A stretch of DNA of 64,000 bases, taken from NCBI GenBank assembly GCA_036397855.1, contig DASWID010000101.1, positions 289 to 64,288 of the forward strand, in the 5' to 3' direction. The number at the start of each line of letters is the position of its first letter. The stretch's first letter is position 1. Below are positions 1,198-25,511 of this stretch, piece by piece. This DNA comes from Thermodesulfobacteriota bacterium (GTDB taxonomy: Bacteria; Desulfobacterota_D; UBA1144; Nemesobacterales; CSP1-2). Below the pieces are notes generated by a model. The model ran no database searches. It had not been told where the DNA came from and saw only the letters and a list, made by a program, of their open reading frames with translations. The translations under genes were made by a program, and so were the position numbers.

Positions 1198-1236
1198 CTA
1201 TCTACAGTAAAAAAACTAATTTAGGAGGTAGTTAGC

Positions 1237-1695
1237 ATGAGATTAGGATTATCCGTTTGGGAACCTTATAAGGGTCTAAATTTATTTGGTGAGACTTTTC
1301 AAAAAATGTTTGATGATACAGCCAAGACTCTTTCTAGATTTGGAATTGAAGATCTCGGCGCCGGGACCTGGGCACCAAGGGTAGATATATATGAAACTGA
1401 AGATAATTATATCGTAAGTGCCGATCTTCCAGGTATAAAGAAAGAGAACATTGGAATCGATCTCAAAGATAACATACTCACAATAAGGGGGGAAAAGAAA
1501 TTTGAGGAGAAGTCTGATAAAGATAATTATGTGAGGGCAGAGCGCAAATATGGAAAGTTTGTCAGAAGCTTTAGCATATCGGATAATGTTGACACGGAGA
1601 AGATCAGGGCCAATTATAAAGATGGTGTCCTGGAGATCACGATTCCGAAGAGAGAAGAAGCAGCAACCAAGCAAATTAAAGTGGAAGTCAAATAA
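1237..1695 (+). CDS. Hsp20/alpha-crystallin family small heat-shock protein
   Basis: Alpha-crystallin domain signature (APRVDIYETEDNYIVSADLPG...GVLEITIPK); strong RBS. Confidence 0.9.
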   Translation: MRLGLSVWEPYKGLNLFGETFQKMFDDTAKTLSRFGIEDLGAGTWAPRVDIYETEDNYIVSADLPGIKKENIGIDLKDNILTIRGEKKFEEKSDKDNYVRAERKYGKFVRSFSISDNVDTEKIRANYKDGVLEITIPKREEAATKQIKVEVK

Positions 1696-1901
1696 TATAT
1701 AATTTAACTCTAAACTACATGCTACCCCGTCTTATAAACGGGGTAGCATTAGGCATAGTATTTACACGTTGGGATTTGGTTTAGTATCAACTACGTAGAT
1801 AAAAATTGAGTTTGCTTCTTGTTAAAACACCTTTTCGGATTTATAATTACCTTTTCTAATTCCATAAACGGTAAGGGATCAGGGAACGGGGCGAGGAAGA
1901 T

Positions 1902-2909
1902 ATGAAACTAAAAATTCTCTTCTTTTTATTGTCCATTGTAACAGGATTTTGGGTTACTTATCCGGCCTATAGCCTTACAACTTCTTTAATAATCACTCTG
2001 GGTATAGGTGCCATTACCCTTGGCGTAATAATCGGAATAGAGCTAGTTATTAAAAATTTCCCAACAAATTCGACTTTAGGATTATCAATCGGCATCGTAA
2101 CAGCGTCGCTTACTTTCTTTGCGATCATAGAGATTATACACGCTTTGAATATTTCACCGGATATATCTAAGTACATTTCTGTGTTCATTTTTATATTGCT
2201 TTTTTATCTAGGCATATCTCAGGGGATAAAAAAAGGCTATGAAGCTGATCGACAGGGAAGAAGGGTTACTGCTAAAAGCGGACCATCCAGCACAAAGATT
2301 CTAGACACTAGCGCTATCATAGATGGAAGGATCGCAGATGTGGCTGAAGCTGGGTTTATCGATGGGGTCCTGTTAGTGCCTAAATTCATAATAAAAGAAC
2401 TTCAGTACATAGCTGATTCCACTGACCCCATCAAACGCGTGAGAGGCAGGCGAGGGCTCGATGTTCTCAAAAGGATGCAGCAAGAGATTCCAAACGTTGT
2501 TATAAAGATAACGAGTCACGATTTTCCGAAGATTAATGAAGCTGATTTAAAACTTGTTGAACTCGCAAAGAGGTTAAAAGGGGTAATAGTGACTAACGAT
2601 TATAATCTAAATAAGGTAGCTGGACTTCATGGGGTAAAGGTACTTAATCTCAATCAATTATCCAGTGCCCTCAAGCCTGTGGTGTTGCCTGGAGAGGCTC
2701 TGACCATAAGTGTTGTCAAGGAAGGGAAGGAGGAAAATCAAGGTATAGGTTATCTTGAAGACGGAACTATGGTTGTCGTTGATGATGGTAAAAGGTACCT
2801 AGGTAAAGATATAGATGTTTCTGTTACCAGTGTCCTTCAAACCCCTACCGGACGTATGATATTCTCCAAGGTTATTGAACGAGGTATGGTCTCTGGATTA
2901 AAAGCCTGA
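1902..2909 (+). CDS. membrane-anchored PIN + TRAM domain protein (YacL-like)
   Basis: Four N-terminal TM helices, then a PIN-like nuclease region and a C-terminal TRAM-like beta domain. Confidence 0.65.
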   Translation: MKLKILFFLLSIVTGFWVTYPAYSLTTSLIITLGIGAITLGVIIGIELVIKNFPTNSTLGLSIGIVTASLTFFAIIEIIHALNISPDISKYISVFIFILLFYLGISQGIKKGYEADRQGRRVTAKSGPSSTKILDTSAIIDGRIADVAEAGFIDGVLLVPKFIIKELQYIADSTDPIKRVRGRRGLDVLKRMQQEIPNVVIKITSHDFPKINEADLKLVELAKRLKGVIVTNDYNLNKVAGLHGVKVLNLNQLSSALKPVVLPGEALTISVVKEGKEENQGIGYLEDGTMVVVDDGKRYLGKDIDVSVTSVLQTPTGRMIFSKVIERGMVSGLKA

Positions 2910-3173
2910 ACAAATTACAACCATTTTGTTTTCTTAATTTTCCCAGACTGATCACCATTATCTAGACAAATTGCCGATCAGTTAGGACCGAGCGATTTGG
3001 CCGCCGCAAAAATCAGTCATATTTAATCAAGAAATTAAAACCGTTCGATTGTACGGTGGATTACGATAGAGAAGAAGTCAGTTCGATAGACGATGACTGA
3101 TCATATGACATAAATTGAAAAAGTTACCGACTTTAGCAGTATACTTTAGTTATGTTAACTTGTGAGGTATTCA

Positions 3174-3656
3174 ATGTTTCGTGTAGGTATTGGGTACGAC
3201 GTGCATAAGTTTTCCGAAGGGAGCAGACTTATTCTCGGAGGAGTCGAGATACCCTTTGAACTGGGACTTCAAGGATACTCAGACGCTGATGTTCTTACTC
3301 ATTCGATCTGTGATGCTATACTTGGTGCACTTGGAGAGCCCGATATAGGTAGTAAATTTCCTGATACTGACCCAAGATACAGGAATATTTCTAGTTTAAT
3401 TCTGTTAAGGGAAACAGTCGTATTATCCAAATCCAAGGGTTTCAATATTGAAAATGTGGATAGTGTAGTTGTTTGTGAGAAGCCTAAGATTGGAAATTAC
3501 GTTTCACAAATCAGAGGAAAACTATCGACGATTCTCGAAATATCAGAAGATTGCATCGGAGTCAAGGCAACAACTACAGATGGCATCGGTTTTACAGGGA
3601 GGGTTGAAGGCATTGCTGCTCATACGGTTGTTCTGATTAAGAAATTTGATGGTTAA
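3174..3656 (+). CDS. ispF: 2-C-methyl-D-erythritol 2,4-cyclodiphosphate synthase
   Basis: MFRVGIGYDVHKF...SDADVLTHSICDAILGA hallmark; ATG at 3174 preferred over the GTG at 3162. Confidence 0.9.
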   Translation: MFRVGIGYDVHKFSEGSRLILGGVEIPFELGLQGYSDADVLTHSICDAILGALGEPDIGSKFPDTDPRYRNISSLILLRETVVLSKSKGFNIENVDSVVVCEKPKIGNYVSQIRGKLSTILEISEDCIGVKATTTDGIGFTGRVEGIAAHTVVLIKKFDG

Positions 3657-6029
3657 ATGAACTCGATTTTCTTAAAATATCCTATACTACCTCCACTAAT
3701 CGGGTATATAGCTGGGATATTTATAAGTGAAAATTTGGGCTACGAATGGATTTTTATCCTTTTTATCTCACCAATACTCGGGCTGCTGTCTTTATTTTTT
3801 GCGGATCTTAGATTTCTCTTGTTTATACCCCTCGGAGTTCTGTTTTCAATAAGTCTCACCCCACCCGAAGATCACATTGCAAACTTTGTTGGAAATGAAA
3901 TTGACCTTTTGGGAACTTTATATAGATCCCCAGAGAGTAGAATAGAGGGTTCAAGGTTGTTTGTTGACGTTCGGGAGATTGTAGTAAAGGGTAAGAAAGA
4001 GTCGGCAACAGGAAAGGTGATCATTAATACTAAACAGAGAATTCGTGGTTTATCTCGAGGGGATTATGTAAGGGTTGTAGATACTGTTTTAAAGCCATAT
4101 AGAACATTTAAGAATCCCGGGAATTTTGATATCAAGCGTTATTATGGAAGGCAGAAGATATATGCCTATGGATTCGTTTCCGGAATGGATTCGATAATTT
4201 TATTTGAGCCAAAACTAACGCCTTTTTACTCTCTAAGGACAATAGATAAGGCTAGAACCAGGTTTGGGGATTTTGTAAGACACAGGTTTCCTCAATCTGA
4301 GGGAGAGATACTGAACGCAATCACAATTGGAGATCAGGGAGGAATGCCAAACGGGCTGAGAGATCTTTTTTCAGCAACTGGTATTGCTCATCTGCTCTCT
4401 ATATCCGGACTGCATGTAGGGGGTGTAGCGCTTGCTTTCTATTTAACGATAAAATGGATTCTGAAAAGGTCGGAGTATCTCTTGATTAGGTGGCAGGTCC
4501 CAAGGCTTACTGCTGGACTAACCATAATACCTTTATTCATCTACATGGCAGTAGCGGGATGTGCTACTCCCGTAGTAAGAGCATTTTTAATGATTGCGGT
4601 TTATCTTATGTCAGTGGTACTTGGTAAAGAGGAAAATAAATTGAATACGCTAGGCGCTTCTGCGTTTATAATTTTGCTGTGGCAACCATGGGCGCTTTTT
4701 CAACTCTCATTTCAACTCTCTTTTGCCGCTGTTTTGGGAATTATATTTGTCAATAGGTTTTATCCATTAAAAGTCGGTAGCTTCTCCGAAAAGATAATCT
4801 CAAGCTCTAAGATAACATTGGGTGCCTCGTTTACAACTATACCCTTAATCGTGAATTCCTTCAGTATTTTATCATTGATATCACTGCCCGCTAATTTAAT
4901 ATTTGTACCCCTGGTTGAATTCTTAATAGTTCCCCTAGGGTTGATTTCATTTTTGGTGTTCTCTGTAAATGAGTACTTAGCAATGCCATTTCTCACTCTC
5001 AATGTTTATCTGATTAGAATTCTTATCTTTGGAATAGAAAAGCTCGTTGAGATACCTTTTGCTTCTTTAACGGTTACATCTTTAGGAATTACGGGTTGGC
5101 TTATGTATATATTGATAATTCTGGTTGTTTGTTTTAAGAAGGTTTTCCCAAATCTCAAATATGTTTTGCCATTTTTTATTGTAGGGTTGATTATGGCGAT
5201 GACTATTAGTAAAGTGAGTAACTCTAAAAGTGGGTATCTAGAATTAGATTTCATAGACATTTCAAATAGGAATATAGTCTTCGTTAAGCTTCCTCAAGAA
5301 AAGACAATTCTCGTCGATGGCGGTTATTCCTTCTTCAATATGGGTGGTTATATGGAAAGAAGCGTAATTTCCCCTTTTCTTCTGAATTCTGACGTTACGA
5401 CCATCGATTATCTAATTTTAACTACATTGGACAAGGATCATTTAGAGGGTGTCAAATACTTGTTACGGAGATTTGAGGTTAAAAGACTCTGGACAAATGG
5501 AGTAAAGTTGGATGGAGAGCTCTGGAAATTGGTCAAAGGTAAGAATATAAGCTGGAAGAATCTCATGGATGAAGTTGAAAATTTTGAAATAGAGGGTGTT
5601 CGGATCGAATTTTATAAACCCAGGGGTTATTATAAAATTGCAGATTCCTCTCGACCCTATCCACTTATATTTAAGTTAACATTTGGAAACATAAATTATC
5701 TATTGGGAGAGTCTTTAGGAGACTTATCTGTGCAACGGGAATTGATCGATATTTACCATAATAGGATTCAATCGAACGTGCTATATATTCCTCAATTAAA
5801 GGGTAATTTAAGGTCATTTAATGATTTTTTGAATATCGTCTCACCAGAGATCTTGATAGTTAATCGTGGAAAAGATAGTCTTAGAAAATATCTTGATAAA
5901 AATGTGCCAAATTTCGACACTCATAGGAAGTCGAAATTCGTTGAAACTACAAAAGAGGGGATGGTTGCAATAAGTACAGACGGCAGGGAGATTAGGAAGA
6001 GGACTTTCAATAATGGCGATTTGTTGTAG
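3657..6029 (+). CDS. comEC: ComEC/Rec2 DNA-internalization competence protein with C-terminal metallo-beta-lactamase domain
   Basis: N-terminal DUF4131-like region, polytopic competence membrane domain, C-terminal MBL fold (DKDHLEG); start abuts the ispF stop. Confidence 0.8.
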   Translation: MNSIFLKYPILPPLIGYIAGIFISENLGYEWIFILFISPILGLLSLFFADLRFLLFIPLGVLFSISLTPPEDHIANFVGNEIDLLGTLYRSPESRIEGSRLFVDVREIVVKGKKESATGKVIINTKQRIRGLSRGDYVRVVDTVLKPYRTFKNPGNFDIKRYYGRQKIYAYGFVSGMDSIILFEPKLTPFYSLRTIDKARTRFGDFVRHRFPQSEGEILNAITIGDQGGMPNGLRDLFSATGIAHLLSISGLHVGGVALAFYLTIKWILKRSEYLLIRWQVPRLTAGLTIIPLFIYMAVAGCATPVVRAFLMIAVYLMSVVLGKEENKLNTLGASAFIILLWQPWALFQLSFQLSFAAVLGIIFVNRFYPLKVGSFSEKIISSSKITLGASFTTIPLIVNSFSILSLISLPANLIFVPLVEFLIVPLGLISFLVFSVNEYLAMPFLTLNVYLIRILIFGIEKLVEIPFASLTVTSLGITGWLMYILIILVVCFKKVFPNLKYVLPFFIVGLIMAMTISKVSNSKSGYLELDFIDISNRNIVFVKLPQEKTILVDGGYSFFNMGGYMERSVISPFLLNSDVTTIDYLILTTLDKDHLEGVKYLLRRFEVKRLWTNGVKLDGELWKLVKGKNISWKNLMDEVENFEIEGVRIEFYKPRGYYKIADSSRPYPLIFKLTFGNINYLLGESLGDLSVQRELIDIYHNRIQSNVLYIPQLKGNLRSFNDFLNIVSPEILIVNRGKDSLRKYLDKNVPNFDTHRKSKFVETTKEGMVAISTDGREIRKRTFNNGDLL

Positions 6030-9864: not shown

Positions 9865-9960
9865 TTGTGTAGATTGAATCCCTGAACGTGAGTCAAGTTT
9901 TCAGAGTAACCTGAATTTCTTCTAAAGGTATTTTTTTCATCCAATATATTCATGAATTTT

Positions 9961-10011
9961 TTACTGGCGGCGGGAGGAATCGAACCTCCGACAAAGGCCT
10001 TATGAGAGCCC
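9961..10011 (-). repeat. attL: truncated copy of the tRNA-Met 3' half (nt 27-72 + 4 nt)
   Basis: Identical to 14657-14707; sequence diverges at 10012. Confidence 0.85.
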
Positions 10012-10033
10012 TTATGGGTTATTGTAACTTTCT

Positions 10034-11116
10034 TTAATCATTAAGTAATTTAGCCCTAACTAGGTGACTTGTGTTCATGTAGGGTTTATTCGGAGCGAAA
10101 TTGACGCTTTCAATGGCTCTCTTTTTATGCTCAGGTGTAGGGTGGGAGTAACGCTTGGTCATAACAATTGACCTATGCCCTAATAGCTCCTGAACGGTAA
10201 CCAGGTCAACTCCATTCATAACAAGCCTTGTAGCAATTGTGTGTCTTAAGTCATGGAACCTACAACGGGATATCTTGGCTTTATTTAAAGCAGTTTCAAA
10301 AGCACTCTTGATTTCTTTGACAGGGCTGCCTTTGTAATTAAAGACATATTCACTGGAAGCATTTTCCTGTAACTCAGTCAATGTTTGCAGTAATGTTTCG
10401 TTGATTGGTATAAATCTAAACTCAAAGTTTTTGGTATCTCTCACGGTGATGGTTCTCTGTTTTAAGTTAACGTCCTCCCATTTAAGGCCTAGAATTTCGC
10501 TTCTCCTCATGCCTGTGCTAACGGCACAAATTAGGATTGGTTTAAGGTGCGGAGCGGCTACTTCATATAGTCTTAAGAAATCCTCTTCACGTAGAATTTG
10601 CATGCGTTGGTTAGAGACCTTAAAGAACTTTACACCCTTCACGGGATTAGCACTAGCTAGACCCCACTCTATCGCTAGGTTAAACATTCTCTTAAGCACG
10701 GTTAACTCTCGATTGATATTTCCCAGCGTCTTGCCCTCATCTTTCCTTTTAGCCTTGAACTGCTCGACAGACCATGAGGTAATATCATCTATACTATGCC
10801 CTTTGAAGAATCGTAACAGTGCCTTGCATATAGTTACGCTTCTCTTATAAGAGCGATGATTTGCTTTTGAATAGTCCAAGTACTTCTCCACTAGCTTTTC
10901 AAAGCCGATTGCCGGTCTCTTGCTCTTAAGATTAAACCTGTCCTGTACCACCTCACCCATCCTTGCCTTCAATGCTTGCTCGGCTTGACCTTTGGTTATC
11001 AAAGCTGTAGAGCCTATCTTCTCTCTGATTTGTTTACCATCCGCATAATAGGCGATATACCAGCTTTTGCCTCTCTTGTAGATGCTGCCCGTACCCCACG
11101 CTCTTCGCTTAGCCAT
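10034..11116 (-). CDS. tyrosine-type site-specific integrase
   Basis: C-terminal catalytic box HDLRHT...LLGH...RYSH; N-terminal AP2/SAM-like arm-binding region. Confidence 0.9.
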   Translation of the reverse strand: MAKRRAWGTGSIYKRGKSWYIAYYADGKQIREKIGSTALITKGQAEQALKARMGEVVQDRFNLKSKRPAIGFEKLVEKYLDYSKANHRSYKRSVTICKALLRFFKGHSIDDITSWSVEQFKAKRKDEGKTLGNINRELTVLKRMFNLAIEWGLASANPVKGVKFFKVSNQRMQILREEDFLRLYEVAAPHLKPILICAVSTGMRRSEILGLKWEDVNLKQRTITVRDTKNFEFRFIPINETLLQTLTELQENASSEYVFNYKGSPVKEIKSAFETALNKAKISRCRFHDLRHTIATRLVMNGVDLVTVQELLGHRSIVMTKRYSHPTPEHKKRAIESVNFAPNKPYMNTSHLVRAKLLND

Positions 11117-11123
11117 TTATCAT

Positions 11124-11321
11124 TTACCTCCCTTTTTTAGGATCTGTTTCGATTGATACACTTTTAATTAAATTATCCTTTTCCATTGCCTGTCTTATCC
11201 AATAACGGACAAGGTCTGAGGAAGTCATTAAATTTTCTTCTGCATAGTTAGTTAAGAACTTAAATTCCTTTGGATGCAACCAGACTTGAAATAACTTTGT
11301 TCTTATTCTTTTTTCCCTCAT
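11124..11321 (-). CDS. ribbon-helix-helix DNA-binding protein (putative excisionase/regulator)
   Basis: Beta strand KLFQVWL followed by two helices as in CopG/Arc; directly upstream of int. Confidence 0.5.
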   Translation of the reverse strand: MREKRIRTKLFQVWLHPKEFKFLTNYAEENLMTSSDLVRYWIRQAMEKDNLIKSVSIETDPKKGR

Positions 11322-11434
11322 GTAATGTTATTATAAATACATTTGATTTGATTGTAAATATCATTGGGATAAAAGGGAAATTTATATAACCTTAATCCAG
11401 AACTCTTTTCTAGTATGATAAAAAATCAAAAATC

Positions 11435-11803
11435 GTGCTATTATTTCCATGTTATATGAGTAAAAATTACGAGTCCTATAAAGAAACTTGTCACATACTA
11501 AATCAGGCAATCGGTGCTCTAGTTATTCATAGGGGAGATATAAGAATACGTCTTATAAACGCATATGTGTTTCACTTGTTTAAATTGGAAGTTGATGATT
11601 TCCCTTGTGAACTTAGAAAGCAATTTAAGTGGGTTAAATCGCAATTAATAAATGAGGGCCGTCTAAAAAAATATGTATACCGAGGTAATTTAATAGACCA
11701 ATTAAAACGGTCTCTCCACGGAAGAAGGTATAAAACACTTGAGAGGATTGCGGAAGCTATACTTGATATCCGTGCCCGATTAGGTGACTACTTAGAGAAT
11801 TAA
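11435..11803 (+). CDS. hypothetical protein (island cargo)
   Basis: ORF only; no recognisable motif. Confidence 0.35.
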   Translation: MLLFPCYMSKNYESYKETCHILNQAIGALVIHRGDIRIRLINAYVFHLFKLEVDDFPCELRKQFKWVKSQLINEGRLKKYVYRGNLIDQLKRSLHGRRYKTLERIAEAILDIRARLGDYLEN

Positions 11804-11911
11804 AAGCCCCCTAATGCGTAATTATTATAAAATGTAGGAGACACACCTTAACCTGATATGATGATATTGACCTTACTTATAGAGTAGTTGACTCCGATTT
11901 TATTTATCCAT

Positions 11912-12475
11912 TTATGAATGCCTGCCTTTAGGGTCTTCGGGTATGGGTATAGGATGTAACTTTATTTTGGTTCTAATTAGAGTTCGTGGTTTATGTATGT
12001 CATTCCAATTCTCCATAATAAACTTAGAGTCAGATTTAGTATTTACATAACCTTCATGATGTGACGCACAATCTATTGAGACTCTTAATGCATCTTCAAT
12101 TTCTGGGTCTAGATATAAGCAATTTTCAGAAAGCCAATCTTGCATCTCAAAGTAAGCTTTATTTAGTTCATCTCGGTTATCATATATTTTGCTCGTAACT
12201 TTGTACCAGTGAGCGTATGCTTTTTGGTGTGCATCTACTATCTTGTCATATGCTATTAACTCTAACTTTTCTTTTCTTTGTCTTTCTGAGATAAGGTAGT
12301 TTGAAAATGAAGTGACCATTGCTCCAATTATTACCCCTAATAATCCAACGATAGCAACATTATCTAATTTTAACAATACTAATATGAGCCAAGCAACTGT
12401 AAATCCTAATGCAAATGCTATTATATTGGAGATGTTTGTAACTATCTTCTCTCTAATCAAAGTTATAATTTTCAT
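11912..12475 (-). CDS. 2-TM membrane protein, candidate SLATT-like effector
   Basis: Two N-terminal TM helices then a ~120-aa soluble helical domain; divergent from the TIR gene. Confidence 0.5.
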   Translation of the reverse strand: MKIITLIREKIVTNISNIIAFALGFTVAWLILVLLKLDNVAIVGLLGVIIGAMVTSFSNYLISERQRKEKLELIAYDKIVDAHQKAYAHWYKVTSKIYDNRDELNKAYFEMQDWLSENCLYLDPEIEDALRVSIDCASHHEGYVNTKSDSKFIMENWNDIHKPRTLIRTKIKLHPIPIPEDPKGRHS

Positions 12476-12545
12476 ATTAACATTCTAAGATTTTATTTAT
12501 TTGATTTCTAGGTGTAATATGCTGCTCCCCAGTAGCCATGTAGTG

Positions 12546-12582
12546 GAGCTTTTTTCACGAGGCACTTATCTTTTTGTTATAT
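12546..12582 (+). repeat. 37-bp perfect direct repeat, copy 1 (gagcttttttcacgaggcacttatctttttgttatat)
   Basis: Identical to 14194-14230. Confidence 0.9.
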
Positions 12583-12844
12583 GCCTTATACAGGCGACGT
12601 AACTCTTTTCGTTGCGACTTCAATAATGCTTACGTTTTATGGTTTCAGGAACACGATGGGCTTTTTGGGGTGTTGTTCCGTATTTTCTCATAGTTACGTG
12701 CTTTTGACGTAAAGGGATATTTTTAAGTATACTCCTATACAAGTAAAAGGGTGATAGGTGTTTGCATAACACCACATACTGGGGGCGTTTATACGAACTT
12801 TAGTTCGTCTAATTATTAGTTAGCCATAAAATCGTAAACATTGG

Positions 12845-13492
12845 ATGATGATAATGAATGCACCAAAGTGTTTCATTAGTTATTCATGGGATAATGATAA
12901 TCATAAAGATTGGGTTAGATTTTTAGCTTCTGAGTTAAGAGCTAGAGGGATCGATGCAAGACTTGATCAGTGGGATACTAAGCTGGGAATAAACCTTCCA
13001 GAGTATATGGAAACCTCAGTTCGTGAATCTGAATACGTCTTACTTATATGCACACCCTTGTTTGCTGAAAAAGCGAATAAGGGTTCTGGGGGTGTAGGCT
13101 ATGAAAAAACAATTGTAACTGGCGAAATATTTTCTGGTGTATCATCCAAGACAAAATTTATCCCTGTTCTTCGTAGTGGTAGCGAATCTGAAGCCATTCC
13201 TTCGTATCTCAGGGGTAAATTTTATATCGATTTTAGAAATGATCAGAATTTTAATGATTCAATTGATAAATTAATAAGAAATATTTTTGATGCTCCAGAA
13301 CACCCACCTCCACCGATTGGAAATCGGCCAAAATTTAATACACAGAGTGCTGGAGTGCGATCGGCACAGAAGGAGGTTCACTTTGACATTACGCGCTTTA
13401 GTAATGCATTTGAATATGCTATAAGCTACAATGGGTTAAGAATGGGAAGAGATGAGGCGCGTCAATGGGCTCTACGAAGATTGGAAGAATAA
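12845..13492 (+). CDS. TIR-like (SEFIR/TIR_2-type) domain protein
   Basis: N-terminal FISYSWDND...WV.FLA.ELR.RGID..LDQWD...YVLLICTP...GGVGYE pattern typical of bacterial TIR/SEFIR folds; ~70-aa C-terminal extension. Confidence 0.7.
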   Translation: MMIMNAPKCFISYSWDNDNHKDWVRFLASELRARGIDARLDQWDTKLGINLPEYMETSVRESEYVLLICTPLFAEKANKGSGGVGYEKTIVTGEIFSGVSSKTKFIPVLRSGSESEAIPSYLRGKFYIDFRNDQNFNDSIDKLIRNIFDAPEHPPPPIGNRPKFNTQSAGVRSAQKEVHFDITRFSNAFEYAISYNGLRMGRDEARQWALRRLEE

Positions 13493-13644
13493 ACAATAGT
13501 TCGCTAACATTTGCTTCAGCCGGCCCCTAAGCGGCGGCGCGATTTTCGGGTTTGCTGGTTTCGGCACAGTTATGTTCATTTTATACGCTTGAGTTGTGAA
13601 AATTCGCGGCGGCTGAGCAAAAGTATCTGGAAGAATACTTAAAT

Positions 13645-14064
13645 TTGGTCGGAAAGGTACTAATTGACTTTGAATACATTGAACTCGCACTGAAACTCTA
13701 TATCGCTGAAACGTATGCCACTATCTCCTCTCGACTAGAGGGGATCGTAACCTTCAAATATGGCTGGGAAGATGTAGAAAACGAACCACTTGACAGGCTC
13801 CTGAATCAATTCTCAAAGATCAGTTCCGATCATCAGCTCGTTAAAGGTCTTGGTCTTCTTCAAAAGGAGCGGAATAAGTTGGCGCATCAGGCATACGTCT
13901 TAACGTTGGAAGAACAGTCAGATCGTGACCACCTTGAAAAGGAATATGCACGTATTACAAAGCCAAAGTCCAAGACTAAGGCGTTAGTTGTGAGAACGAT
14001 GGAAGCGTGCAAAGTGCTCGAAAGTCCATTCTCGAAAACAACAAGAAAAAGTGGGAATACGTGA
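13645..14064 (+). CDS. hypothetical small protein with HEPN-like Rx4H motif (ERNKLAHQ)
   Basis: ORF starts at a TTG (no ATG available); Rx4H motif mid-protein; weak call. Confidence 0.35.
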   Translation: MVGKVLIDFEYIELALKLYIAETYATISSRLEGIVTFKYGWEDVENEPLDRLLNQFSKISSDHQLVKGLGLLQKERNKLAHQAYVLTLEEQSDRDHLEKEYARITKPKSKTKALVVRTMEACKVLESPFSKTTRKSGNT

Positions 14065-14180
14065 CACATCTTGACTATTTAAAATTATGCTAATGAGTTA
14101 AATCTATAAATATGTGTATATCTAAATAGATACTGTTTGTTATTGCTAGCATTAGCCATAATACCCTATTATTGCCCCCA

Positions 14181-14203
14181 GCTCGAGGCATTCGAGCTTT
14201 TTT
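14181..14203 (+). terminator. rho-independent terminator (gctcgag-gcat-tcgagc + T6)
   Basis: Perfect 6-bp stem, 5-nt loop and a U-tract; overlaps the start of 37-bp repeat copy 2. Confidence 0.6.
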
Positions 14204-14230
14204 CACGAGGCACTTATCTTTTTGTTATAT
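14194..14230 (+). repeat. 37-bp perfect direct repeat, copy 2
   Basis: Identical to 12546-12582. Confidence 0.9.
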
Positions 14231-14656
14231 ATTAATATTATTGTCTATTAAAAATAGCGACCTCTCCGGGGCAGGGATATACCCCTTTAAAGCACGCTAC
14301 GCTGACCGAGACGAGCCTCTATCCCGGTGGCTAATAGTAAATAGTGATAAAAATAAATTAGTAAGTTTAGAATGCCGTTGAATCCGGAGTTATCTTTCTT
14401 GGCAAAAGCACTCTACTTTGTGTAGCTTCGCCTTTAGGTAACTTAACTTGTCGTCCTCTAAGTTTCTTGATTACTTATTACATGAAGGAGGGGTACATAT
14501 CTGTGTTCAATATGTGTTTGTAGTGTGTTTATTCTATGGAAAAACCTACCATATAGGAGAAAGATATTGAAAAGTATTGAAACTGGGAATATAGAGGCTT
14601 ATTTCTCTTAACTTCTTGAAATCAAATAAGAATCTTTTGTTTATAATGGGTTATTT

Positions 14657-14707
14657 TTACTGGCGGCGGGAGGAATCGAACCTCCGACAAAGGCCTTATG
14701 AGAGCCC
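14657..14707 (-). repeat. attR: 3' half of the intact tRNA-Met plus 4 flanking nt
   Basis: Identical to 9961-10011. Confidence 0.85.
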
Positions 14708-14732
14708 TGCTCTACCTCTGAGCTACGCCGCC
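14661..14732 (-). tRNA. tRNA-Met (anticodon CAT)
   Basis: Cloverleaf folded by hand: acceptor GGCGGCG/CGCCGCC, D-arm GCTC..GAGC, anticodon loop CTCATAA, T-loop TTCGATT; CCA not encoded; anticodon stem has two G-U pairs. Confidence 0.8.
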
Positions 14733-14899
14733 AAGGTTAGTATTTGGAGTATGTTTCAAGCCAACATAAGGATATTTAACAGTTTTTCTACGCGGGGTTT
14801 ATTTTTATATGTTGATCTGGTCAGTATATCATGGCGGGTCTAACTTTCAAGACGAAACTAGCTTTTTTGTAACAAATTGGGGGTATTAGAAGCGAAATA

Positions 14900-14928
14900 A
14901 ATTTTCCTCTTGACAGATTAAGTAACGT
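14900..14928 (+). promoter_or_regulatory. consensus sigma-70 promoter TTGACA-17-TATAAT
   Basis: Perfect consensus hexamers with 17-nt spacer. Confidence 0.7.
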
Positions 14929-14934
14929 ACTTTA

Positions 14935-15030
14935 TAATCACTTTTAAATTTAAATTTTCAACTTAATGCACTTCATCCTTTATCCTCCTTTAAAGTGGGA
15001 ATGTTTCTAAATCTGGGAGCATTCCCTCTT
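14935..15030 (+). ncRNA. candidate small RNA, copy A (CU-rich anti-SD core AUCCUCCUUUAA + hairpin terminator)
   Basis: Between the promoter at 14900 and the hairpin gtgggaatg...cattccc (14995-15028); about 75% identical to 25512-25605. Confidence 0.5.
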
Positions 15031-16703: not shown

Positions 16704-17025
16704 CTGATGGGACCTAGATTCTAATATAATTAGAATCTCAATTTGCTATTTAACCAATCCATTGAGTAGAGACTACTTTAAGTCATTGTAAGATCTGATA
16801 AAAAATCTCCCGGTTACCACGGACGCAAGTTCTCCCGCAAGGGCAGGTGGGTACTTATCAAATAATAGTTAAAGACCGGTTTGGGAATTCAAGGGAAGCT
16901 ACTATTCCTAAAGGACAGACTACCACAGTTAGTGAGGGTAGAGACGGGGAGCTTCGGATTAATATCCATATAATCATAATCTGTAGAATCCTTCAACATG
17001 TTCACTACGCAAAAAGTAATATTTG

Positions 17026-17610
17026 TTATTCATTCGCTTCTTCCCATGCTTTCCACAGTTCTTCTATATTTTGACTTCTAGCAAAGTCCTCTTTGTAGTG
17101 TTGAGGATTAATCTGCCAACTCATGAATCTATGGAATACAATACTAAGCTTTTCCTTTACCAAGTAAGGATCAAATCCCCAAAACATATCCCATGTTCCA
17201 CCCAAGGGAAAAAAGATTTTGTAGAAAAGGACCTGCTTTGGTTCTAATCTATCATATGAAATCAACCCTGTCCGAACAAAGCCATAACCCATTCCGAAAT
17301 TAAAGGCTAAATTTTCACTGTTAAGCCCAAGCCTTTTTGCTGCCATCATAGCAAGCACGGTAAATACATACAAGGCTTCGGATGTAGCATATCCATATTG
17401 GGAAAGCTTCTCATCCATCTTAATAATTTTTGACATAAGCCATTCATATTCTTCTCCAATAAGCCACTTAAAATCCTTCAGATCCTCGTAGTTAAACTCC
17501 CCTATATCACCGCACATCTCAAAGGAGCATCTCAAGTCCTCCCATTCTCTTGTGATTATCTGATAGGTTTTATTTAGTGAAATCGGTAAACTAAATGACA
17601 TATTTCTCAT
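17026..17610 (-). CDS. hypothetical cytoplasmic protein
   Basis: ORF only. Confidence 0.4.
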   Translation of the reverse strand: MRNMSFSLPISLNKTYQIITREWEDLRCSFEMCGDIGEFNYEDLKDFKWLIGEEYEWLMSKIIKMDEKLSQYGYATSEALYVFTVLAMMAAKRLGLNSENLAFNFGMGYGFVRTGLISYDRLEPKQVLFYKIFFPLGGTWDMFWGFDPYLVKEKLSIVFHRFMSWQINPQHYKEDFARSQNIEELWKAWEEANE

Positions 17611-18314
17611 TGTTTTCCCCTTCTAATTAATTAGTTTTCCCGTATCAAAGGCGTTAAGACGTGATCCATATAAATGGTGCACCTACGATAATTTAGTCAC
17701 CCTCCACCTACCATTACTAAAGCGGGCAATTTTCATGCCAGTAGTTATAAATTTGATTGCGCAATAATTAAAGATAGTTATGACTGCAAGAAAACGAATT
17801 TATAACACAATGTGCAAGGATACACGGCTTCAGGTGTGAAAATTTCAACACCTTTAAACCATCAGATCAATTTATCAAATGAAACAAAAACTATCTTTGT
17901 AACTTGGAAGAGAGGTTAGATAAGATAGAAAATTCATTCGATAGCGGAGGCAGTGACACAAAAAGAATTGGGGCAGTTCCACAGATGACATGTTTACCAA
18001 CTAACAAAGCAGAACAGACGATAATAGACGGTATCGACAGAATTGCGAAAGGCATCCAGAATTAATTGCTATAACCACGATTTCACCTATCAGACGGTGT
18101 AAGTTGAAGTGGCAATCTATCTATTCCGTAAAGACATAGTACCACTTTCCGCACTAAGTATGGCTATTAAGCCATAGAAGGCCTCAGTTAGCGGGCAATT
18201 TCTAGGGATTTTTGTAAGAGGATTTGGGGAACAGCCCGTTGATTTTTGACCCCTCTTAGTTCAAAATTTACTTACAAGGAAGTGATGAGAAGAAAGAAAT
18301 AAAGTAAAGGCGTA

Positions 18315-18728
18315 ATGAGAGATAATTTAACTAAAGCAATTGTTTCTGCTCTAACTTTAATCCTGATATTTGCTTTTGTAGTAAGTTGTGACGATGACGA
18401 TGGGGAATGCAATTTTGACTTTGACGATATTTTAAACGGCTCTACGAGACCATCACAGACATCCGAGTGGGATTGCGTGGGAGATGGGGAGGTATTTTCT
18501 GTAGCTTTCTTTGAGGACGAAACAGGGTTTGACAGTGATTTGGGGCCATTTACATGGGAGAGGAGCGGTTGTAGGAGTCTAGTCTTCTTTTCAGGTTTTG
18601 GTGTGGGAGAAATATTTGACCTGCAAGGTTCAATTGATTCAGGCATTATCAGTTTTGCTCAGACTATAGATCGAGATTTTTTTGATGTTGCGTGTGAGTT
18701 GGATACAACTCCGGAAGATACAATCTGA
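18315..18728 (+). CDS. acidic Cys-containing lipoprotein
   Basis: Lipobox-like LILIFAFVVSC followed by a DDDDGE acidic stretch. Confidence 0.45.
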   Translation: MRDNLTKAIVSALTLILIFAFVVSCDDDDGECNFDFDDILNGSTRPSQTSEWDCVGDGEVFSVAFFEDETGFDSDLGPFTWERSGCRSLVFFSGFGVGEIFDLQGSIDSGIISFAQTIDRDFFDVACELDTTPEDTI

Positions 18729-18969
18729 GCCTTCTATAATAAATTCGAGCAATAATTAATAACCTATCTGTTAAGTTTGGAATAAAAGCATACCCTCATA
18801 TTATTCGGATCCTGTCTGCAATGGCTGGTGGCGTCTTGACAAGGTTAGTGATTAATTGAGAATTTTGCCGAAATATTCTCATAGTTGTGAGATAAGTGGT
18901 TGGTAATCAAAAAGCTATCTGACATTATCTGTCAGGTGGAGTATTGGTAAGTACAATTTAGGTTTACGT

Positions 18970-19090
18970 CTAGAGAGTCAATTTGGGCTTGTTCGTCTTT
19001 GTGAGATTTTCGACGGAATCGTTTACGATGGGAACAGCCCCTAGAACTTGGACATATTTTGTTTGGTAACTCAGTGCTCCCCCCCCATTG
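18970..19090 (-). pseudogene. C-terminal remnant paralogous to the last ~35 codons of the 20902-21360 gene
   Basis: In-frame translation ...SYQTKYVQVLGAVPIVNDSVENLTKTNKPKLTL* versus SYQTKYVQVLGAVPVVKNSVRSFTNTKKPKLTP*; no start codon; G8 homopolymer at the 5' edge. Confidence 0.6.
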
Positions 19091-19272
19091 TTTTCTTCCT
19101 TAATTTTTACTAAATTTCTTCTAACCTATCCTTAATGGGGAGCAGTATATGGGATACTTTTGACTGACGCTTATAGTTCGAGAGGAAATAGATTGTGCTC
19201 ATCTTACGTTGCTACATGCTTCAATTAAGTTTATAAGGTCAACGAGTAGTTAGATATGTAACGATAATTAAA

Positions 19273-20607
19273 TCAGTTGGCATACTGACCTCTAAACTGA
19301 CCGGTGTCTATAAGCATGATATTCATGCCAAAAGAGGTATTCATGACCTTTATGAATTCGTTAGCTATTAATGCATATCCGGCATTATTTGGATGGACTC
19401 CATCAAGACTGAACGCAGTATTCACATTGTCGATCAGTACGAATTCTCCTGTAAAACCATCAACACCTTGGTTGTTAATCTTGAATAGTAAATCATTAGC
19501 ATCAACTACCGGCACATTCAATTCGAATGCAATATTAGAGATTGATTCATTAAACTCAGCGACAGTATTTTGAATAGTTTCGTCCTCCGAAACTGTCAAT
19601 GTAAACTCACCATTAAAGGGCATGCCGGAGGGAACTAAGCCATTATCTTGAATTTCAATAACTAACTGCTCGGCATCATCCATTGTAAATCCTAGGTCAA
19701 TAAGTGCATTCGCATCTGGAATTCCAACCCCATTATTTTCATACGGCCTGCGGGATGAAAGTAATAGATGAACCACATCGCTCTCATCGGTCAGAATAGG
19801 AATAAATAGACCATCCCCGAAATCGATAGGCTGAAAATTCTGATCATACAATACCGGGACAGGGGTGTTAATTCCCAAGGCCGGAATGGTTGTGAAAATC
19901 CTATCGAAAAAGTTAATGAAAGGAATATCTACAACATCGGGAATATTAGCAACCACTATCGACGCGGATGTGTTGTTTCGTAATTTTGACAGTGAGTCTC
20001 TATACTCAGCATCGAACTCTTGTTCGGGTGTAATCCTATTCAGGTCACCCCCGTGTAATGCAGCACTTATAACATCATTACCTCCAATCCAAAACGAAAT
20101 GATCTCAGGATCTAAATCGATAGCCTGATCTAGCTGTGAACCCATTCCTCGTAAAATTAAGAAACGCAGATCATCAATTCTTGCATCATCATCGATGTCA
20201 AAAAGGGCATCACCCGGAATTCCCAAGTTGTCGTATGGTCTTGGCAACAGCGGATTTATTGCCAAATCGAAAATATCTTCGAGCTGTAAATCGTCTTCTA
20301 CGATTTCACCATTTCTAAACATCAGGGGTGTCTTTCCGGGATTTGCACCTATGCCCGGTCTACCAATCAAAGGCTGTTCGAAATCACCAACTCCAAGCTG
20401 CTGTGCAATGAAAAAAGGGAAGCTGTGCTGCTGAAAATCTATTACTAATCCATTTGATTGGACTCCCGTGGTAAGACTATCACCGACTGCAACGTATTTT
20501 CTTGGCCCAGAATCCACAATATCATTCACAACATCGTCGGTCTCGTCACAACCTGTAAATATCAGAAGATTGACTAAAATAATTAGGGTAAATAAGTTTT
20601 TAATCAT
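19273..20607 (-). CDS. SGNH/GDSL hydrolase family lipoprotein
   Basis: Lipoprotein signal; GDSLT block near the N-terminus; C-terminal DGVHPN block. Confidence 0.6.
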   Translation of the reverse strand: MIKNLFTLIILVNLLIFTGCDETDDVVNDIVDSGPRKYVAVGDSLTTGVQSNGLVIDFQQHSFPFFIAQQLGVGDFEQPLIGRPGIGANPGKTPLMFRNGEIVEDDLQLEDIFDLAINPLLPRPYDNLGIPGDALFDIDDDARIDDLRFLILRGMGSQLDQAIDLDPEIISFWIGGNDVISAALHGGDLNRITPEQEFDAEYRDSLSKLRNNTSASIVVANIPDVVDIPFINFFDRIFTTIPALGINTPVPVLYDQNFQPIDFGDGLFIPILTDESDVVHLLLSSRRPYENNGVGIPDANALIDLGFTMDDAEQLVIEIQDNGLVPSGMPFNGEFTLTVSEDETIQNTVAEFNESISNIAFELNVPVVDANDLLFKINNQGVDGFTGEFVLIDNVNTAFSLDGVHPNNAGYALIANEFIKVMNTSFGMNIMLIDTGQFRGQYAN

Positions 20608-20901
20608 CGGGTTCTCCTAAGATGGCTTGATGCTGTTTTAAAGTTGGTGATATTATTGTTTGAATTGAACTCACTGAGGTTTTTAAACGTACTTAGCATT
20701 ATAAATGTTAAATTCATTACATTCCTTTCGGGATCGGGACTTATTTGATTATCGTGACACAAAAGGGATAAGGATTCAATAGGAAAAATAATGTAATCCT
20801 TTTAGGGCGAAAATGTATGAAAGTATCCGTCGGTTTTATAAAGGTGGGTTGGGGATTTTGTACTGCTACCCTTTTGTCAAGCCTCCAAGTTAGGCTAACC
20901 T

Positions 20902-21360
20902 CTAGGGAGTCAATTTGGGCTTTTTTGTGTTAGTGAAACTACGTACGGAATTCTTCACTACGGGAACCGCCCCTAGAACTTGGACGTATTTTGTTTGGTA
21001 ACTCATTGCTCCCATGCCAAGAGGCATTCCACTTTTGAGATAGGTTTCCTTACTGCGAGGAGGGATTGTGATGGGAAGGACACCAGTTGTACTGCTTACT
21101 TGTTCGCCAGCATTGCCATATGAAGTGGAGTAATAGTTGAGTTTTATTTCAATATCTTTATAAGGTATATCAGCTGTGTTCTCAATCGTAACGTTACTAA
21201 TCATCGCTACCCTCAACGCTGCAAAGTAAGACCAGTCAGTAACTTTGATGTACCACTCTGGATGCTGAATCATTGAAATGGTGGGGTCCGATTCTTGAGC
21301 TTTGGCAAGCGTAGAAAATAGAATCAATAAGATGAAGAGTTTTGTGGCTATATGGTTCAA
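20902..21360 (-). CDS. secreted hypothetical protein
   Basis: Signal peptide; its 3' end is duplicated at 18970-19090. Confidence 0.5.
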   Translation of the reverse strand: MNHIATKLFILLILFSTLAKAQESDPTISMIQHPEWYIKVTDWSYFAALRVAMISNVTIENTADIPYKDIEIKLNYYSTSYGNAGEQVSSTTGVLPITIPPRSKETYLKSGMPLGMGAMSYQTKYVQVLGAVPVVKNSVRSFTNTKKPKLTP

Positions 21361-21592
21361 CTTTGGGTTCTCAGGTCTGTAGGTATTAATTCCTACTATT
21401 ATACACTAGCCTAGACTCCATCTTTAATCCTTGCGACTTCATTTTTTAACTCTATGAGATTTTTGTGTTGTGTAGTATCTTGTTTGTACTAGGTTCTTAA
21501 TGGGGAGCAGTACAATCTAGCGGTACCTTTAGCTAAGATTAGAAAGTGGTGGTAGCGAATATGTCTTTTTAAATTCCAATGGTAACCCTTAC

Positions 21593-21859
21593 GTGAGACA
21601 TGATTCGTTAAGCAGAGCTTTTCACGGAGCTTGTGAGAGGTCTAATATCAAAGGCTTGAGATTCCATGACCTAAGGCATACTTGTGCAACAAGATTAGTA
21701 GAAGCTGGGGTTCCACTTCATACTGTTTCGAAACTACTAGGTCATTCTACAATTAGGATGACCGAAAGATATAGCCAACCCGAAGAAAGTTTGAAGGGAG
21801 CAGTCGAAATTCTGGAAAAACTAGAAACTCGCTTTAGCCAATCGAAAAGAATTATTTGA
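21593..21859 (+). pseudogene. tyrosine integrase C-terminal fragment 1
   Basis: RFHDLRHTCATRLVEAGVPLHTVSKLLGHSTIRMTERYSQ without an N-terminal domain. Confidence 0.8.
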
Positions 21860-21919
21860 AATAATCGATAGAAGTACTGCTTTCAAAATCAGACCTATAT
21901 ATTTGCATAAACGCTTGCG

Positions 21920-22084
21920 ATGAATGGAGTTGATCTGATAGCAGTTCAGGAACTCTTAGGACAAAAATCTATAGTTATAAAAAAGCATTATTCACGCTCA
22001 ATACCGGCGTATAAGAGAAGGGCCGTTGAATCAATTGCTTTAACAAAAAAAGTGCGGAATAAGACAAATGGCAAGAATCCGTAG
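21920..22084 (+). pseudogene. tyrosine integrase C-terminal fragment 2 (paralog of the 10034-11116 integrase)
   Basis: MNGVDLIAVQELLGQKSIVIKKHYSRS...KRRAVESIAL aligns to NGVDLVTVQELLGHRSIVMTKRYSH...KKRAIESV of the intact integrase. Confidence 0.8.
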
Positions 22085-22139
22085 ACATGTTTGTTAAGCA
22101 TTATTAGTCAACTTAAGATGCGGACTTACCCGTGTTTCG

Positions 22140-22182
22140 CTCCAAAGCCAGAGGTTGCGGGTACGAATCCTGCCTCGCCCGC
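22140..22182 (+). other. tRNA-like 3' fragment / att remnant (T-arm-like GCGGGTACGAATCCTGC + acceptor-like CTCGCCC)
   Basis: About 60 nt downstream of int fragment 2, in the same int-att orientation as island 1; no matching 5' half found. Confidence 0.4.
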
Positions 22183-22317
22183 TTTATTTATTCTTATGAT
22201 TTAGGAAAGTTATAGATTATTAGGGGAGGTTTTATTAACGGAAAAATAATTAAGGCGTCCGTATACGTGTCTAAGAGACGTGCTCCAACGAATACTATAT
22301 AGACATCCAATTAATTT

Positions 22318-23301
22318 TTATTTCAATTCATTCAGTTTTTTTTGGAACGCTCTTAATTTATCGATAATATGATCGAACGTGGGATATGCACCGAAAATCA
22401 TTTCCTCCATCGCTTCGTAATCTTCCATCAATGACTTAAGCCTTGATTCGTCGGGTATTAGCTTTATTGTTCTAGGGGTTGCCAGATCATATTTTGCCCA
22501 ATTACTGTAATAAAAACGTTTTTTAAAATTCACAACATCATCCAACAACTTCAAATTCTTTAATCCCTTCATCTCAATATCTGTATCCAACATTTTATAA
22601 ACATCATAATAATGCCTCGAATAACGAGCTGGATGTGACTTTCCAGCTGGCCTGTGTGCCTCAACATGCAGTATTGTTACTTTCTCCCAAAATGTTCTTT
22701 CAGGAACGATAGAAACGACGTTAGCAAACGAATTTTCAAATTTTTCTGGAAATACCTCTGCTGCATAAGGCCGTATCGAGTATTTAGAGCACGGAACCAT
22801 TGAACTGATGGGCCCAATTTCTAATCGTATTTCTGGCCGCAAGTATGTACCAGAAAAAAGTTTGGGATATTGGATAATAACTGTTTGCCCATCGTATGAA
22901 TCCACTCTTGCGTCGCACGGCGGTTGCATTAAACCATTCAAAATGGGCAACAAGTCTCTGCCGATATAGTCCTCCGCTAATTTGTTTAATTTCTTGTTGA
23001 AAATATCTTGTTGTGTGTTGCTTCGGCCTTCGTATGGATCCTCATCGGTCAACACCGACCAATCTAATACCAAATCTATATCTTCTGAAAAACGATCAAT
23101 TACTTGGAAGCACTTTGAGAGAGTTGTTCCACCTTTAAACCTAAACAACTCTTTTAGGTCGTCATCCTCGAAGAGCTTCATTAATGCCCAGCAGATCCAA
23201 AAGTCTTTTTCTATCGCTGCTCCTTGCATCCCTTTACGTGCAGCTGTTTCAAGAAAAAGTTCTTCACGCTCGTTTTTGTTAAAAGTAGCTACTTTCTTCA
23301 T
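22318..23301 (-). CDS. AbiEii/AbiGii nucleotidyltransferase toxin (DUF1814)
   Basis: FKGGTTLSK...RFSEDIDL nucleotidyltransferase motif; 4-bp overlap with the upstream AbiEi gene. Confidence 0.8.
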   Translation of the reverse strand: MKKVATFNKNEREELFLETAARKGMQGAAIEKDFWICWALMKLFEDDDLKELFRFKGGTTLSKCFQVIDRFSEDIDLVLDWSVLTDEDPYEGRSNTQQDIFNKKLNKLAEDYIGRDLLPILNGLMQPPCDARVDSYDGQTVIIQYPKLFSGTYLRPEIRLEIGPISSMVPCSKYSIRPYAAEVFPEKFENSFANVVSIVPERTFWEKVTILHVEAHRPAGKSHPARYSRHYYDVYKMLDTDIEMKGLKNLKLLDDVVNFKKRFYYSNWAKYDLATPRTIKLIPDESRLKSLMEDYEAMEEMIFGAYPTFDHIIDKLRAFQKKLNELK

Positions 23302-23906
23302 TCCTTATTTTTAAATATAGCTTTAATAATTTCATAGACCCAGCTTGTTGTGTATTTTGTATCTTTCAAAATACGCCCGTGTTTTTCGGAACGAAAATAA
23401 TTGAATATGGTTTGCCTTTGTTGTTTGGTCAGTGTTTTATTACCTAATGCTTTAATCGCTTGAACCACTAATTCACTCTCTGGGTATTTCAGACCTATAT
23501 CTTTTAAGGTTGTTTTCTTAAATTCCAGTTCAATATTGCCAATCTGATACACCTTACTCTTACCATCAGTGTAGTAAAGATATTTAGTAGGAACCTGTGT
23601 TGATAGACCTAACACGTTCAACGCCGCATTACCTGAAATCTGAATTTTCCATCCAAATTTCCGGGCGAAAACCTGTGCCACTTGATCAACGTCTGGGCTT
23701 AAATCTTGCTCTAATAATTTGCTGTATTTTGGGTAATCGTATATACCACGTATAACCCTGCGAATGTGACCTTTATCTAATAAGCGACTCAAAACCTTAT
23801 CAATGGTATTTGCATTCCCCAAATCGGCAAAATCATTTTTGAAAAACGCCCAACCCCTACCATTGCCATAAATCCTGCTTATTACTTTATTTTCAATGGA
23901 TTGCAT
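23298..23906 (-). CDS. AbiEi family antitoxin / transcriptional regulator
   Basis: N-terminal ISRIYGNGRGWAFFKNDFADLG...IRRVIRGIYDYP pattern of AbiEi (DUF6088-like). Confidence 0.75.
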   Translation of the reverse strand: MQSIENKVISRIYGNGRGWAFFKNDFADLGNANTIDKVLSRLLDKGHIRRVIRGIYDYPKYSKLLEQDLSPDVDQVAQVFARKFGWKIQISGNAALNVLGLSTQVPTKYLYYTDGKSKVYQIGNIELEFKKTTLKDIGLKYPESELVVQAIKALGNKTLTKQQRQTIFNYFRSEKHGRILKDTKYTTSWVYEIIKAIFKNKE

Positions 23907-24153: not shown

Positions 24154-24155
24154 AA

Positions 24156-25505: not shown

Positions 25506-25511
25506 AATATT

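Follow-up and report, generated by a model that had tools for sequence, protein, structure and literature searches.

A small integrative island at a tRNA-Met gene in an uncultured Dadabacteria-like lineage

How does the 3′ part of a tRNA gene come to stand a second time, some 4.7 kb from the intact gene and directly beside an integrase, and can the DNA between the two copies still move? These questions are raised by a stretch of 64,000 nucleotides (nt) from a Thermodesulfobacteriota bacterium (NCBI GenBank assembly GCA_036397855.1, contig DASWID010000101.1, positions 289 to 64,288 of the forward strand), referred to here at its full length as the window. The repeated sequence belongs to a tRNA-Met gene, and the enclosed DNA very probably represents a 4.7-kb site-specific integrative island that entered through tyrosine-integrase recombination of an element-borne attachment site (attP) with that gene. 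Site-specific integration into the 3′ end of the tRNA gene had been proposed in an initial annotation of this DNA; an exact 55-bp repeat, an intact integrase, and two related contigs with an empty site now bear that proposal out.

The repeated tRNA-Met sequence, its integrase, and the empty site

The features that delimit the island are the following, in window coordinates.

9958–10012, minus strand: displaced 3′ fragment of tRNA-Met, the distal attachment site (att) copy; exact 55-bp repeat with chromosomal DNA on its left
10034–11116, minus strand: full-length tyrosine integrase of 360 amino acids (PF00589 at 1.3e-35, with Int_N; phrog_1 integrase at 1.1e-76)
14231–14653, no strand: non-coding element DNA of about 420 nt, presumed from its position to be the long arm of attP
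14654–14733, minus strand: regenerated intact tRNA-Met(CAT) with the proximal att copy (tRNA 14660–14733; att 14654–14708), from ARAGORN and Rfam

Both a repeat search and direct string comparison recovered 55 bp that are identical between 9958–10012 and 14654–14708; identity ends at both edges, and not one further base matches. The 51-bp repeat first described at 9961–10011 and 14657–14707 is indeed exact, but it lies inside this longer one, and its reported make-up of 47 nt of tRNA plus 4 flanking nt gives way to tRNA positions 26–74 (49 nt) plus 6 nt downstream (TTTTTA). The tRNA portion takes in the complete anticodon stem-loop as well as the variable arm, the T arm, and the 3′ strand of the acceptor stem. 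The intact gene, called by ARAGORN on the minus strand with an Rfam tRNA score of 69 bits, owes its Met identity to the CAT anticodon; U1 and A72 are paired in the sequence, which we take to argue against an initiator tRNA, and the gene may alternatively encode tRNA-Ile2. With both repeats included the element measures 4,751 bp (repeat-to-repeat unit, 4,696 bp), in agreement with the unusually small size of 4.75 kb noted initially.

The integrase stop codon lies 22 nt from the left repeat copy. Its R (GMRRSE), HxxR (HDLRH), H (GHRS), and Y (KRYSH) residues align with the matching residues of the P2 integrase (5c6k) and XerA (4a8e) in a comparison confined to these positions, so that the earlier description of a full-length tyrosine integrase adjoining the repeat is upheld by both domain content and catalytic residues. 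The open reading frame (ORF) is intact, with no substitutions among the contigs compared. The closest homologues are 63–67% identical (L022, L023); targeting of tRNA-Met by these relatives was considered and rejected, as neither a tRNA nor a tRNA fragment adjoins them.

An empty site occurs within the same species. A contig retrieved by an exact match to the encoded M23 peptidase (JGI 3300031949, Ga0214473_10054739; hereafter L036) holds one 55-bp core and lacks exactly 4,696 bp: its positions 1–3257 correspond to window 17910–14654 at 99.88% identity and its positions 3203–4672 to window 10012–8541 at 99.66%, the two matches overlapping by exactly the core. The order in this contig is sigma-factor flank, TTTTTA, complete tRNA-Met, and M23 flank. 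In a related species (L002) the empty site is colinear with the window after in-silico excision, at 84% nucleotide identity over 809 nt, and again has a single core copy. At both loci the tRNA is identical in sequence to the regenerated tRNA-Met of the window, and the native flank matches the DNA to the left of the displaced fragment. Direct joining of tRNA-Met to the sigma-factor flank, which the initial annotation had proposed to look for, is accordingly present in L036 and likewise in L002, and neither contig has the repeat without an island, the finding that would have spoken against integration.

The occupied arrangement recurs at 99.6–99.96% identity in at least six assemblies from six different samples: ERZ27256875 (L018/L031), JGI 3300031965 (L019), ERZ27256953 (L020), ERZ27256991 (L035), ERZ27254795 (L034, left junction only), and SRR9005073 (L021). 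Because the junctions agree among these assemblies, which come from different samples and several public collections, the doubt raised at the outset, that the repeat might reflect faulty assembly, is removed. The empty haplotype L036 differs from the window by few single-nucleotide polymorphisms (SNPs), and the one at 17597 is common to L036 and an occupied contig; presence and absence of the island are therefore alternative states within one population-level lineage. Integration at this locus is thus precise, the integrase is intact, and the island is present in some members of one species and absent from others.

These observations are consistent with a mechanism in which the element-borne attP would carry a copy of the tRNA-Met gene from position 26 to the 3′ end. 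Crossover would most likely fall in the anticodon loop, with the arms of the anticodon stem acting as inverted core-binding sites; the element-borne copy would restore a functional tRNA at 14660–14733, and the original 3′ part of the gene would be pushed 4,696 bp away to 9958–10012, beside the integrase stop codon. The predicted attP junction reads ...TTTATAATGGGTTA + 55-bp core + TATGGGTTATTGTAAC..., and the junction of the bacterial attachment site (attB), as present in L036, reads ...ATATATTCATGAAT + core + GCTCTACCTCTGAGC.... Since the tRNA-sense core follows the integrase stop codon in the reconstructed attP, the integrase comes to lie beside the displaced fragment and the long arm at 14231–14653 beside the regenerated tRNA. 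Near this arm, the only ORFs of at least 40 amino acids are 14172–14381 and 14448–14570 (plus strand), both without a family match or public gene call, and the same holds for any ORF in the approximately 590 nt that separate the last cargo gene from the tRNA.

Two further sequence similarities were observed around the att sites. A 10-mer, ATGGGTTATT, occurs at 14646–14655 and at 10014–10023, so placed that in the reconstructed attP a direct repeat borders the 55-bp core at either end; it is not present in the attB flanks, and no equivalent motif lies beside a tRNA-Ala fragment in L002 that is described below. The 10-mer could be a binding site for the integrase or an accessory factor. Additionally, about 100 nt upstream of tRNA-Met (14909–15011) are 74.5% identical, in the same orientation, to sequence upstream of a tRNA-Ala gene (25476–25576), and may represent a shared promoter or leader element.

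Excision, loss, or an ancestral empty site

Whether the island can still leave its site is a question separate from how it entered, and several observations weigh against an element that remains active. None of the contigs looked up contains the circular (attP) junction. Among contigs sought by the exact integrase and by the exact sequence of a HEPN-like cargo protein, those with element genes that reach past the element ends all show the integrated form, the others being short contigs that break inside the repeats. Logan contigs end 25–30 nt inside the repeats, which were probably too long for a short assembly k-mer to span, and are uninformative; also uninformative are searches with the 55-mer in metagenome_contigs and with its 46-nt part (the tRNA portion up to GAGAGC) in viral_contigs, which gave 0 matches in a collection that evidently does not include the source samples. 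The empty allele, moreover, could have been retained from an ancestor by a sister lineage and not have arisen by excision.

The missing attP junction would also fit a possible, if doubtful, alternative, namely a single past integration that left a fixed remnant which no longer excises, with the empty allele of L036 and L002 as the ancestral state in sister lineages. Private SNPs of L036 at 9042, 9049, 15704, 17680, and 17784, which indicate a distinct lineage, agree with such a history, as does the inability of the element to transfer between cells by itself. Several features of the locus speak against it: the two att copies agree at every one of their 55 bp and the integrase ORF is intact, without substitutions in the contigs compared; the flanks of the empty allele diverge by 0.1–0.3%, within the range of the occupied alleles (L034, 0.4%); and decayed integrase fragments in the same window (21491–22036) show the contrasting look of a dead element. 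Because the repeats are perfect and the integrase is unaltered, a still-competent element is favoured, and it appears rather likely that the island can still be excised. As no gene for replication, packaging, or transfer is carried, its movement from cell to cell must rely on something else.

Loss through RecA-dependent homologous recombination between the 55-bp repeats, in place of excision by the integrase, is a quite unlikely source of the empty allele. A perfect direct repeat of 55 bp is long enough for a rare event of this kind, and the product would be indistinguishable from that of integrase-mediated excision. However, the more distant L002 is also empty, which fits an ancestral empty site followed by gain and not repeated loss, and an intact integrase adjoins the site.

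It is very unlikely that the island is a prophage remnant or a helper-dependent phage satellite, of the phage-inducible chromosomal island (PICI) or P4-like type. The integrase does match phrog_1, integrases in phage records reach up to about 32% identity with it, and small size together with defence cargo is typical of satellites. Scans of the element's ORFs against Pfam, NCBIfam, PADLOC, and PHROGs, on the other hand, returned no capsid, terminase, primase/replicase, repressor, or packaging gene in any library, and the island has no close relatives in viral contigs (best identity, 32%); the same scans found no other replication gene and no relaxase or secretion gene.

A chance match or a faulty assembly as the source of the repeat has negligible probability, given that 0 of 100 dinucleotide-preserving shuffles yielded a match with up to three mismatches permitted, and given the junctions shared by at least six assemblies from different samples.

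Accessory protein, cargo, and neighbouring tRNA sites

Between the integrase and the long arm the island contains the following features, of which the first two belong with the integrase and include a ribbon-helix-helix (RHH)-like protein.

11124–11321, minus strand: basic RHH-like putative DNA-binding protein of 65 amino acids, 7 nt upstream of the integrase gene and in the same orientation
11330–11358, minus strand: promoter-like site TTTACA-17-TATAAT of the RHH–integrase operon, the best consensus match in the region (11/12)
11456–11803, plus strand: ORF of 115 amino acids with no assigned function, divergent from the RHH–integrase pair and called as a gene in public assemblies
11912–12475, minus strand: protein of 187 amino acids with no assigned function; hydrophobic N-terminal region read from the translation
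12546–12582, plus strand: internal 37-bp exact repeat, copy 1, preceded by a hairpin and T-run
12845–13492, plus strand: short SEFIR/TIR protein of 212–215 amino acids (TIR_2 8e-20; SEFIR 6.7e-15; PADLOC bSEFIR, PDLC03957, 2.9e-75)
13645–14064, plus strand: minimal HEPN-like protein of 139 amino acids with an Rx4H motif; homology from about 13606
14194–14230, plus strand: internal 37-bp exact repeat, copy 2, directly after the terminator-like hairpin that follows the HEPN gene

The 65-residue protein is probably an RHH DNA-binding protein, judging from remote sequence similarity and a predicted structure. Its sequence matches are all to RHH families (RelB antitoxin, 0.009; RepA/CopB-like, 0.037; DUF6290, 0.057); in an AlphaFold2 model with a pLDDT of 76, two helices superpose on Arc, CopG, ORF56, and CopA_SO at 0.6–1.2 Å, and the best Foldseek matches of the model, non-significant at E > 2, are mostly RHH proteins (CopA_SO, Arc, ORF56, CopG, PutA). 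Weighing against this assignment are the weakness of the sequence and Foldseek matches (E ≥ 0.009 and E > 2, respectively) and the helical N-terminus of the monomer model; a sequence search of the PDB with the RHH profile gave nothing significant. RHH homologues lie directly upstream of an integrase ORF wherever neighbours were listed (L022, L038, L039–L042, L067), and one RHH relative is 73% identical, its integrase only 35%. The protein would most likely serve as the DNA-binding accessory factor of the element, whether as an autorepressor, as a directionality factor, or as both, and by the position of its gene it is a candidate excisionase (Xis). The RHH and integrase genes form one operon behind the strong promoter-like site, a best match in a region in which the total count of such sites is not above that in shuffles. 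The spacer of this site holds tandem ATCAA repeats, a putative operator.

Relatives of the RHH–integrase module stand next to other tRNA genes (Glu, Asn, Lys, Leu, Ala), and restriction-modification and Mrr genes accompany relatives of the integrase module (L023, L038). Three short metagenome contigs that encode an RHH homologue have a full-length tRNA, Lys-CTT or Leu-TAA (L068 1558–1634, L069 1677–1760, L072 1553–1628), about 1.2 kb downstream of the RHH gene and co-directional with it, at a position where the window has a fragment only. These elements may carry whole tRNA genes or integrate 5′ of the tRNA.

SEFIR proteins are reported to be single-protein anti-phage defences that deplete NAD+ via an N-terminal SEFIR domain (10.1101/2022.05.11.491447; 10.1101/2024.02.11.579819). 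In public gene calls the protein of the island has 212 amino acids, corresponding to a start at 12854. Its bSEFIR match covers profile positions 33–218 of 412, so that the C-terminal half is absent, a point against its equation with that system. A truncated gene with its C-terminal part in the downstream ORF was considered and refuted, since the 139-amino-acid product of that ORF belongs to a separate HEPN family and many SEFIR homologues of 210–260 amino acids cover the full length of the SEFIR protein. Because this large set of homologues spans its entire length, the SEFIR protein represents a short form and not a truncation.

The HEPN-like protein has 316 representative relatives, and R76-N77-x3-H81 (Rx4H) is invariant across 30 aligned homologues; members of the family give weak matches to the HEPN_RiboL-PSP and Csm6_HEPN profiles. 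The combination of an Rx4-6H motif with a length of about 130–150 amino acids suggests membership of the HEPN superfamily and a role as a putative RNase. The closest homologue (74% identity) starts 12 codons earlier; the corresponding window codons (AAAEQKYLEEYLN) are in frame, with GCG at the position of the ATG and a stop at 13597. Because the upstream ATG reads GCG and the stop precedes it, the protein is taken to be N-terminally shortened, with a TTG start at 13645. The unusually GC-rich stretch upstream of the gene (approximately 13500–13620) was tried as a structured RNA or a miniature inverted-repeat transposable element and rejected (fold z-score −0.27, no Rfam match, no second copy).

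A reading of SEFIR and HEPN as defence cargo is plausible at the level of protein families. Two observations weigh against it: the start codon of the closest HEPN homologue is no longer present in the HEPN gene of the island, and HEPN is not a conserved partner of SEFIR, the two not being found together in the three other SEFIR loci examined, for which reason a conserved SEFIR–HEPN pair was rejected. As for the two remaining ORFs, the 115-amino-acid product has no match in Pfam, NCBIfam, PHROGs, or PADLOC, and the 187-amino-acid protein has non-significant matches only.

The copies of the 37-bp direct repeat flank the SEFIR–HEPN pair, 1,648 bp apart, with weaker similarity about 35 nt further upstream. 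The hairpins that precede them differ, each with a T-run, and in some strains a SNP distinguishes one copy; the repeat is confined to copies of this element and may represent either the edge of a cassette or a terminator region that was duplicated. A broader conjecture, which we regard as unlikely, is that the RHH–integrase pair defines a minimal tRNA-targeting family in Thermodesulfobacteriota/Dadabacteria-like genomes, with RHH proteins as a new class of directionality factor, SEFIR–HEPN cassettes swapped as modules, and the 37-bp repeats as a second, internal recombination site.

The tRNA-Met gene is also occupied in a third relative. In L001, a 48-nt tRNA-Met 3′ fragment (11278–11325) follows the sigma-factor gene and is itself followed by more than 10 kb of unrelated DNA, with ORFs that resemble IS3-family transposase fragments in translation, unknown ORFs, and no integrase at that end, the far end lying outside the DNA fetched. 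Because the fragment precedes unrelated DNA, the tRNA-Met gene is a hot spot, used in L001 by a different, larger island.

Island-like material was also observed at tRNA-Ala. In L002, right after an LpqE-like gene, a 52-nt tRNA-Ala 3′ fragment (13365–13416) is 100% identical to window 25276–25327 and also keeps the whole anticodon stem-loop; an integrase of 362 amino acids (13439–14527), 41% identical to that of the window, stands beside it in the same geometry. Synteny between the window and L002 stops at window 16772, and window 16773–25277 may be old island material at tRNA-Ala. Within it, C-terminal integrase pseudogene fragments with in-frame stops (21491–21808 and 21881–22036, plus strand; 47–52% identical to the intact integrase) adjoin an AbiEii/AbiEi-like pair and a gene of 334 amino acids of unknown function (22318–25040), just downstream of tRNA-Ala(CGC) at 25278–25354 (minus strand); the region 21491–25040 has the look of a decayed island. 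Elsewhere in the window there is no tRNA-Ala fragment of at least 12 nt. A 128-nt direct repeat (18954–19081 and 20886–21013, 82% identity) flanks a GDSL-lipase gene region, its right copy lying inside an ORF of 152 amino acids (20902–21360).

Significance and comparison with known systems

The island is a cleanly delimited, naturally polymorphic, and very small mobile element in a phylum-level lineage without cultured members or genetic tools, and an integration vector for such organisms could be developed from its integrase, 55-bp attB, and defined attP. Three states of the tRNA-Met locus are seen, namely unoccupied, occupied by this island, and occupied by another, larger one, and the neighbouring tRNA-Ala locus also has island material, which points to turnover of defence genes in these genomes. 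The case is otherwise a textbook one that leaves current understanding unchanged; it stands out for small size, an uncultured host, and clean presence/absence polymorphism.

Set against larger classes of mobile element, the island is by gene content not a prophage, as PHROGs assigns one function (integrase) among the six ORFs scanned. Neither is it an integrative and conjugative or integrative and mobilizable element, since the ORFs scanned have no relaxase or type IV secretion match in Pfam or NCBIfam, though an origin of transfer (oriT) may still be present. Library scans likewise gave no replication module, helper-interference gene, or packaging gene that would place the island with phage satellites (PICI or P4-like) or tycheposons.

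At the level of single modules, the arrangement resembles lambda-type int-xis modules in that a small, basic, putative DNA-binding gene lies just upstream of the integrase gene, co-oriented with it and near attP; the small protein here, however, looks like an RHH protein and not a winged-helix Xis, and no paper in the literature searched connects the RHH fold, excisionase, and recombination directionality factors. The SEFIR protein resembles the bSEFIR system (Millman et al., 10.1101/2022.05.11.491447) in its N-terminal SEFIR domain, as reflected in the PADLOC match, but differs from validated bSEFIR in having a short conserved tail in place of a long C-terminal region (212–215 amino acids vs. 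a 412-position profile).

Closer parallels are found in the tycheposons of Prochlorococcus and in the "cryptic" elements, consisting of integrase and excisionase only, that were described with them (Hackl et al., 10.1101/2020.12.28.424599). Like these, the island is a small carrier of cargo in a tRNA gene, flanked by a partial tRNA, and their sites include a tRNA-Met; as with tycheposons, different elements share one tRNA as a hot spot, and conjugation or phage genes are absent. Unlike tycheposons, it has no primase, helicase, or other hallmark gene, and its cargo is defence-like where theirs serves nutrient acquisition.

The island is, in sum, a tRNA gene (tDNA)-targeting integrative island of a well-known kind. 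The Islander criteria call for an intact tRNA gene, a co-oriented displaced fragment downstream of it, and an integrase between the two (Hudson et al., 2015, PMC4383910). All of these are present here, namely tRNA-Met at 14660–14733, a 49-nt fragment downstream with both on the minus strand, and the integrase at 10034–11116 between them, together with the empty sites of L036 and L002. As far as the Williams (2002) classes are summarised in 10.1101/2020.11.02.365908, symmetric stem arms form the core-type sites of the anticodon-loop sublocation, and this island, with an identity block that spans the anticodon stem through the 3′ end, belongs to that sublocation. Where Islander islands peak in size at 13.6 and 39.9 kb (PMC4383910), this element, at 4.7 kb, falls far below both peaks; it differs further from Islander tDNA islands in that the integrase lies beside the displaced fragment and not beside the regenerated tRNA, and in that the host belongs to an uncultured, Dadabacteria-like lineage.

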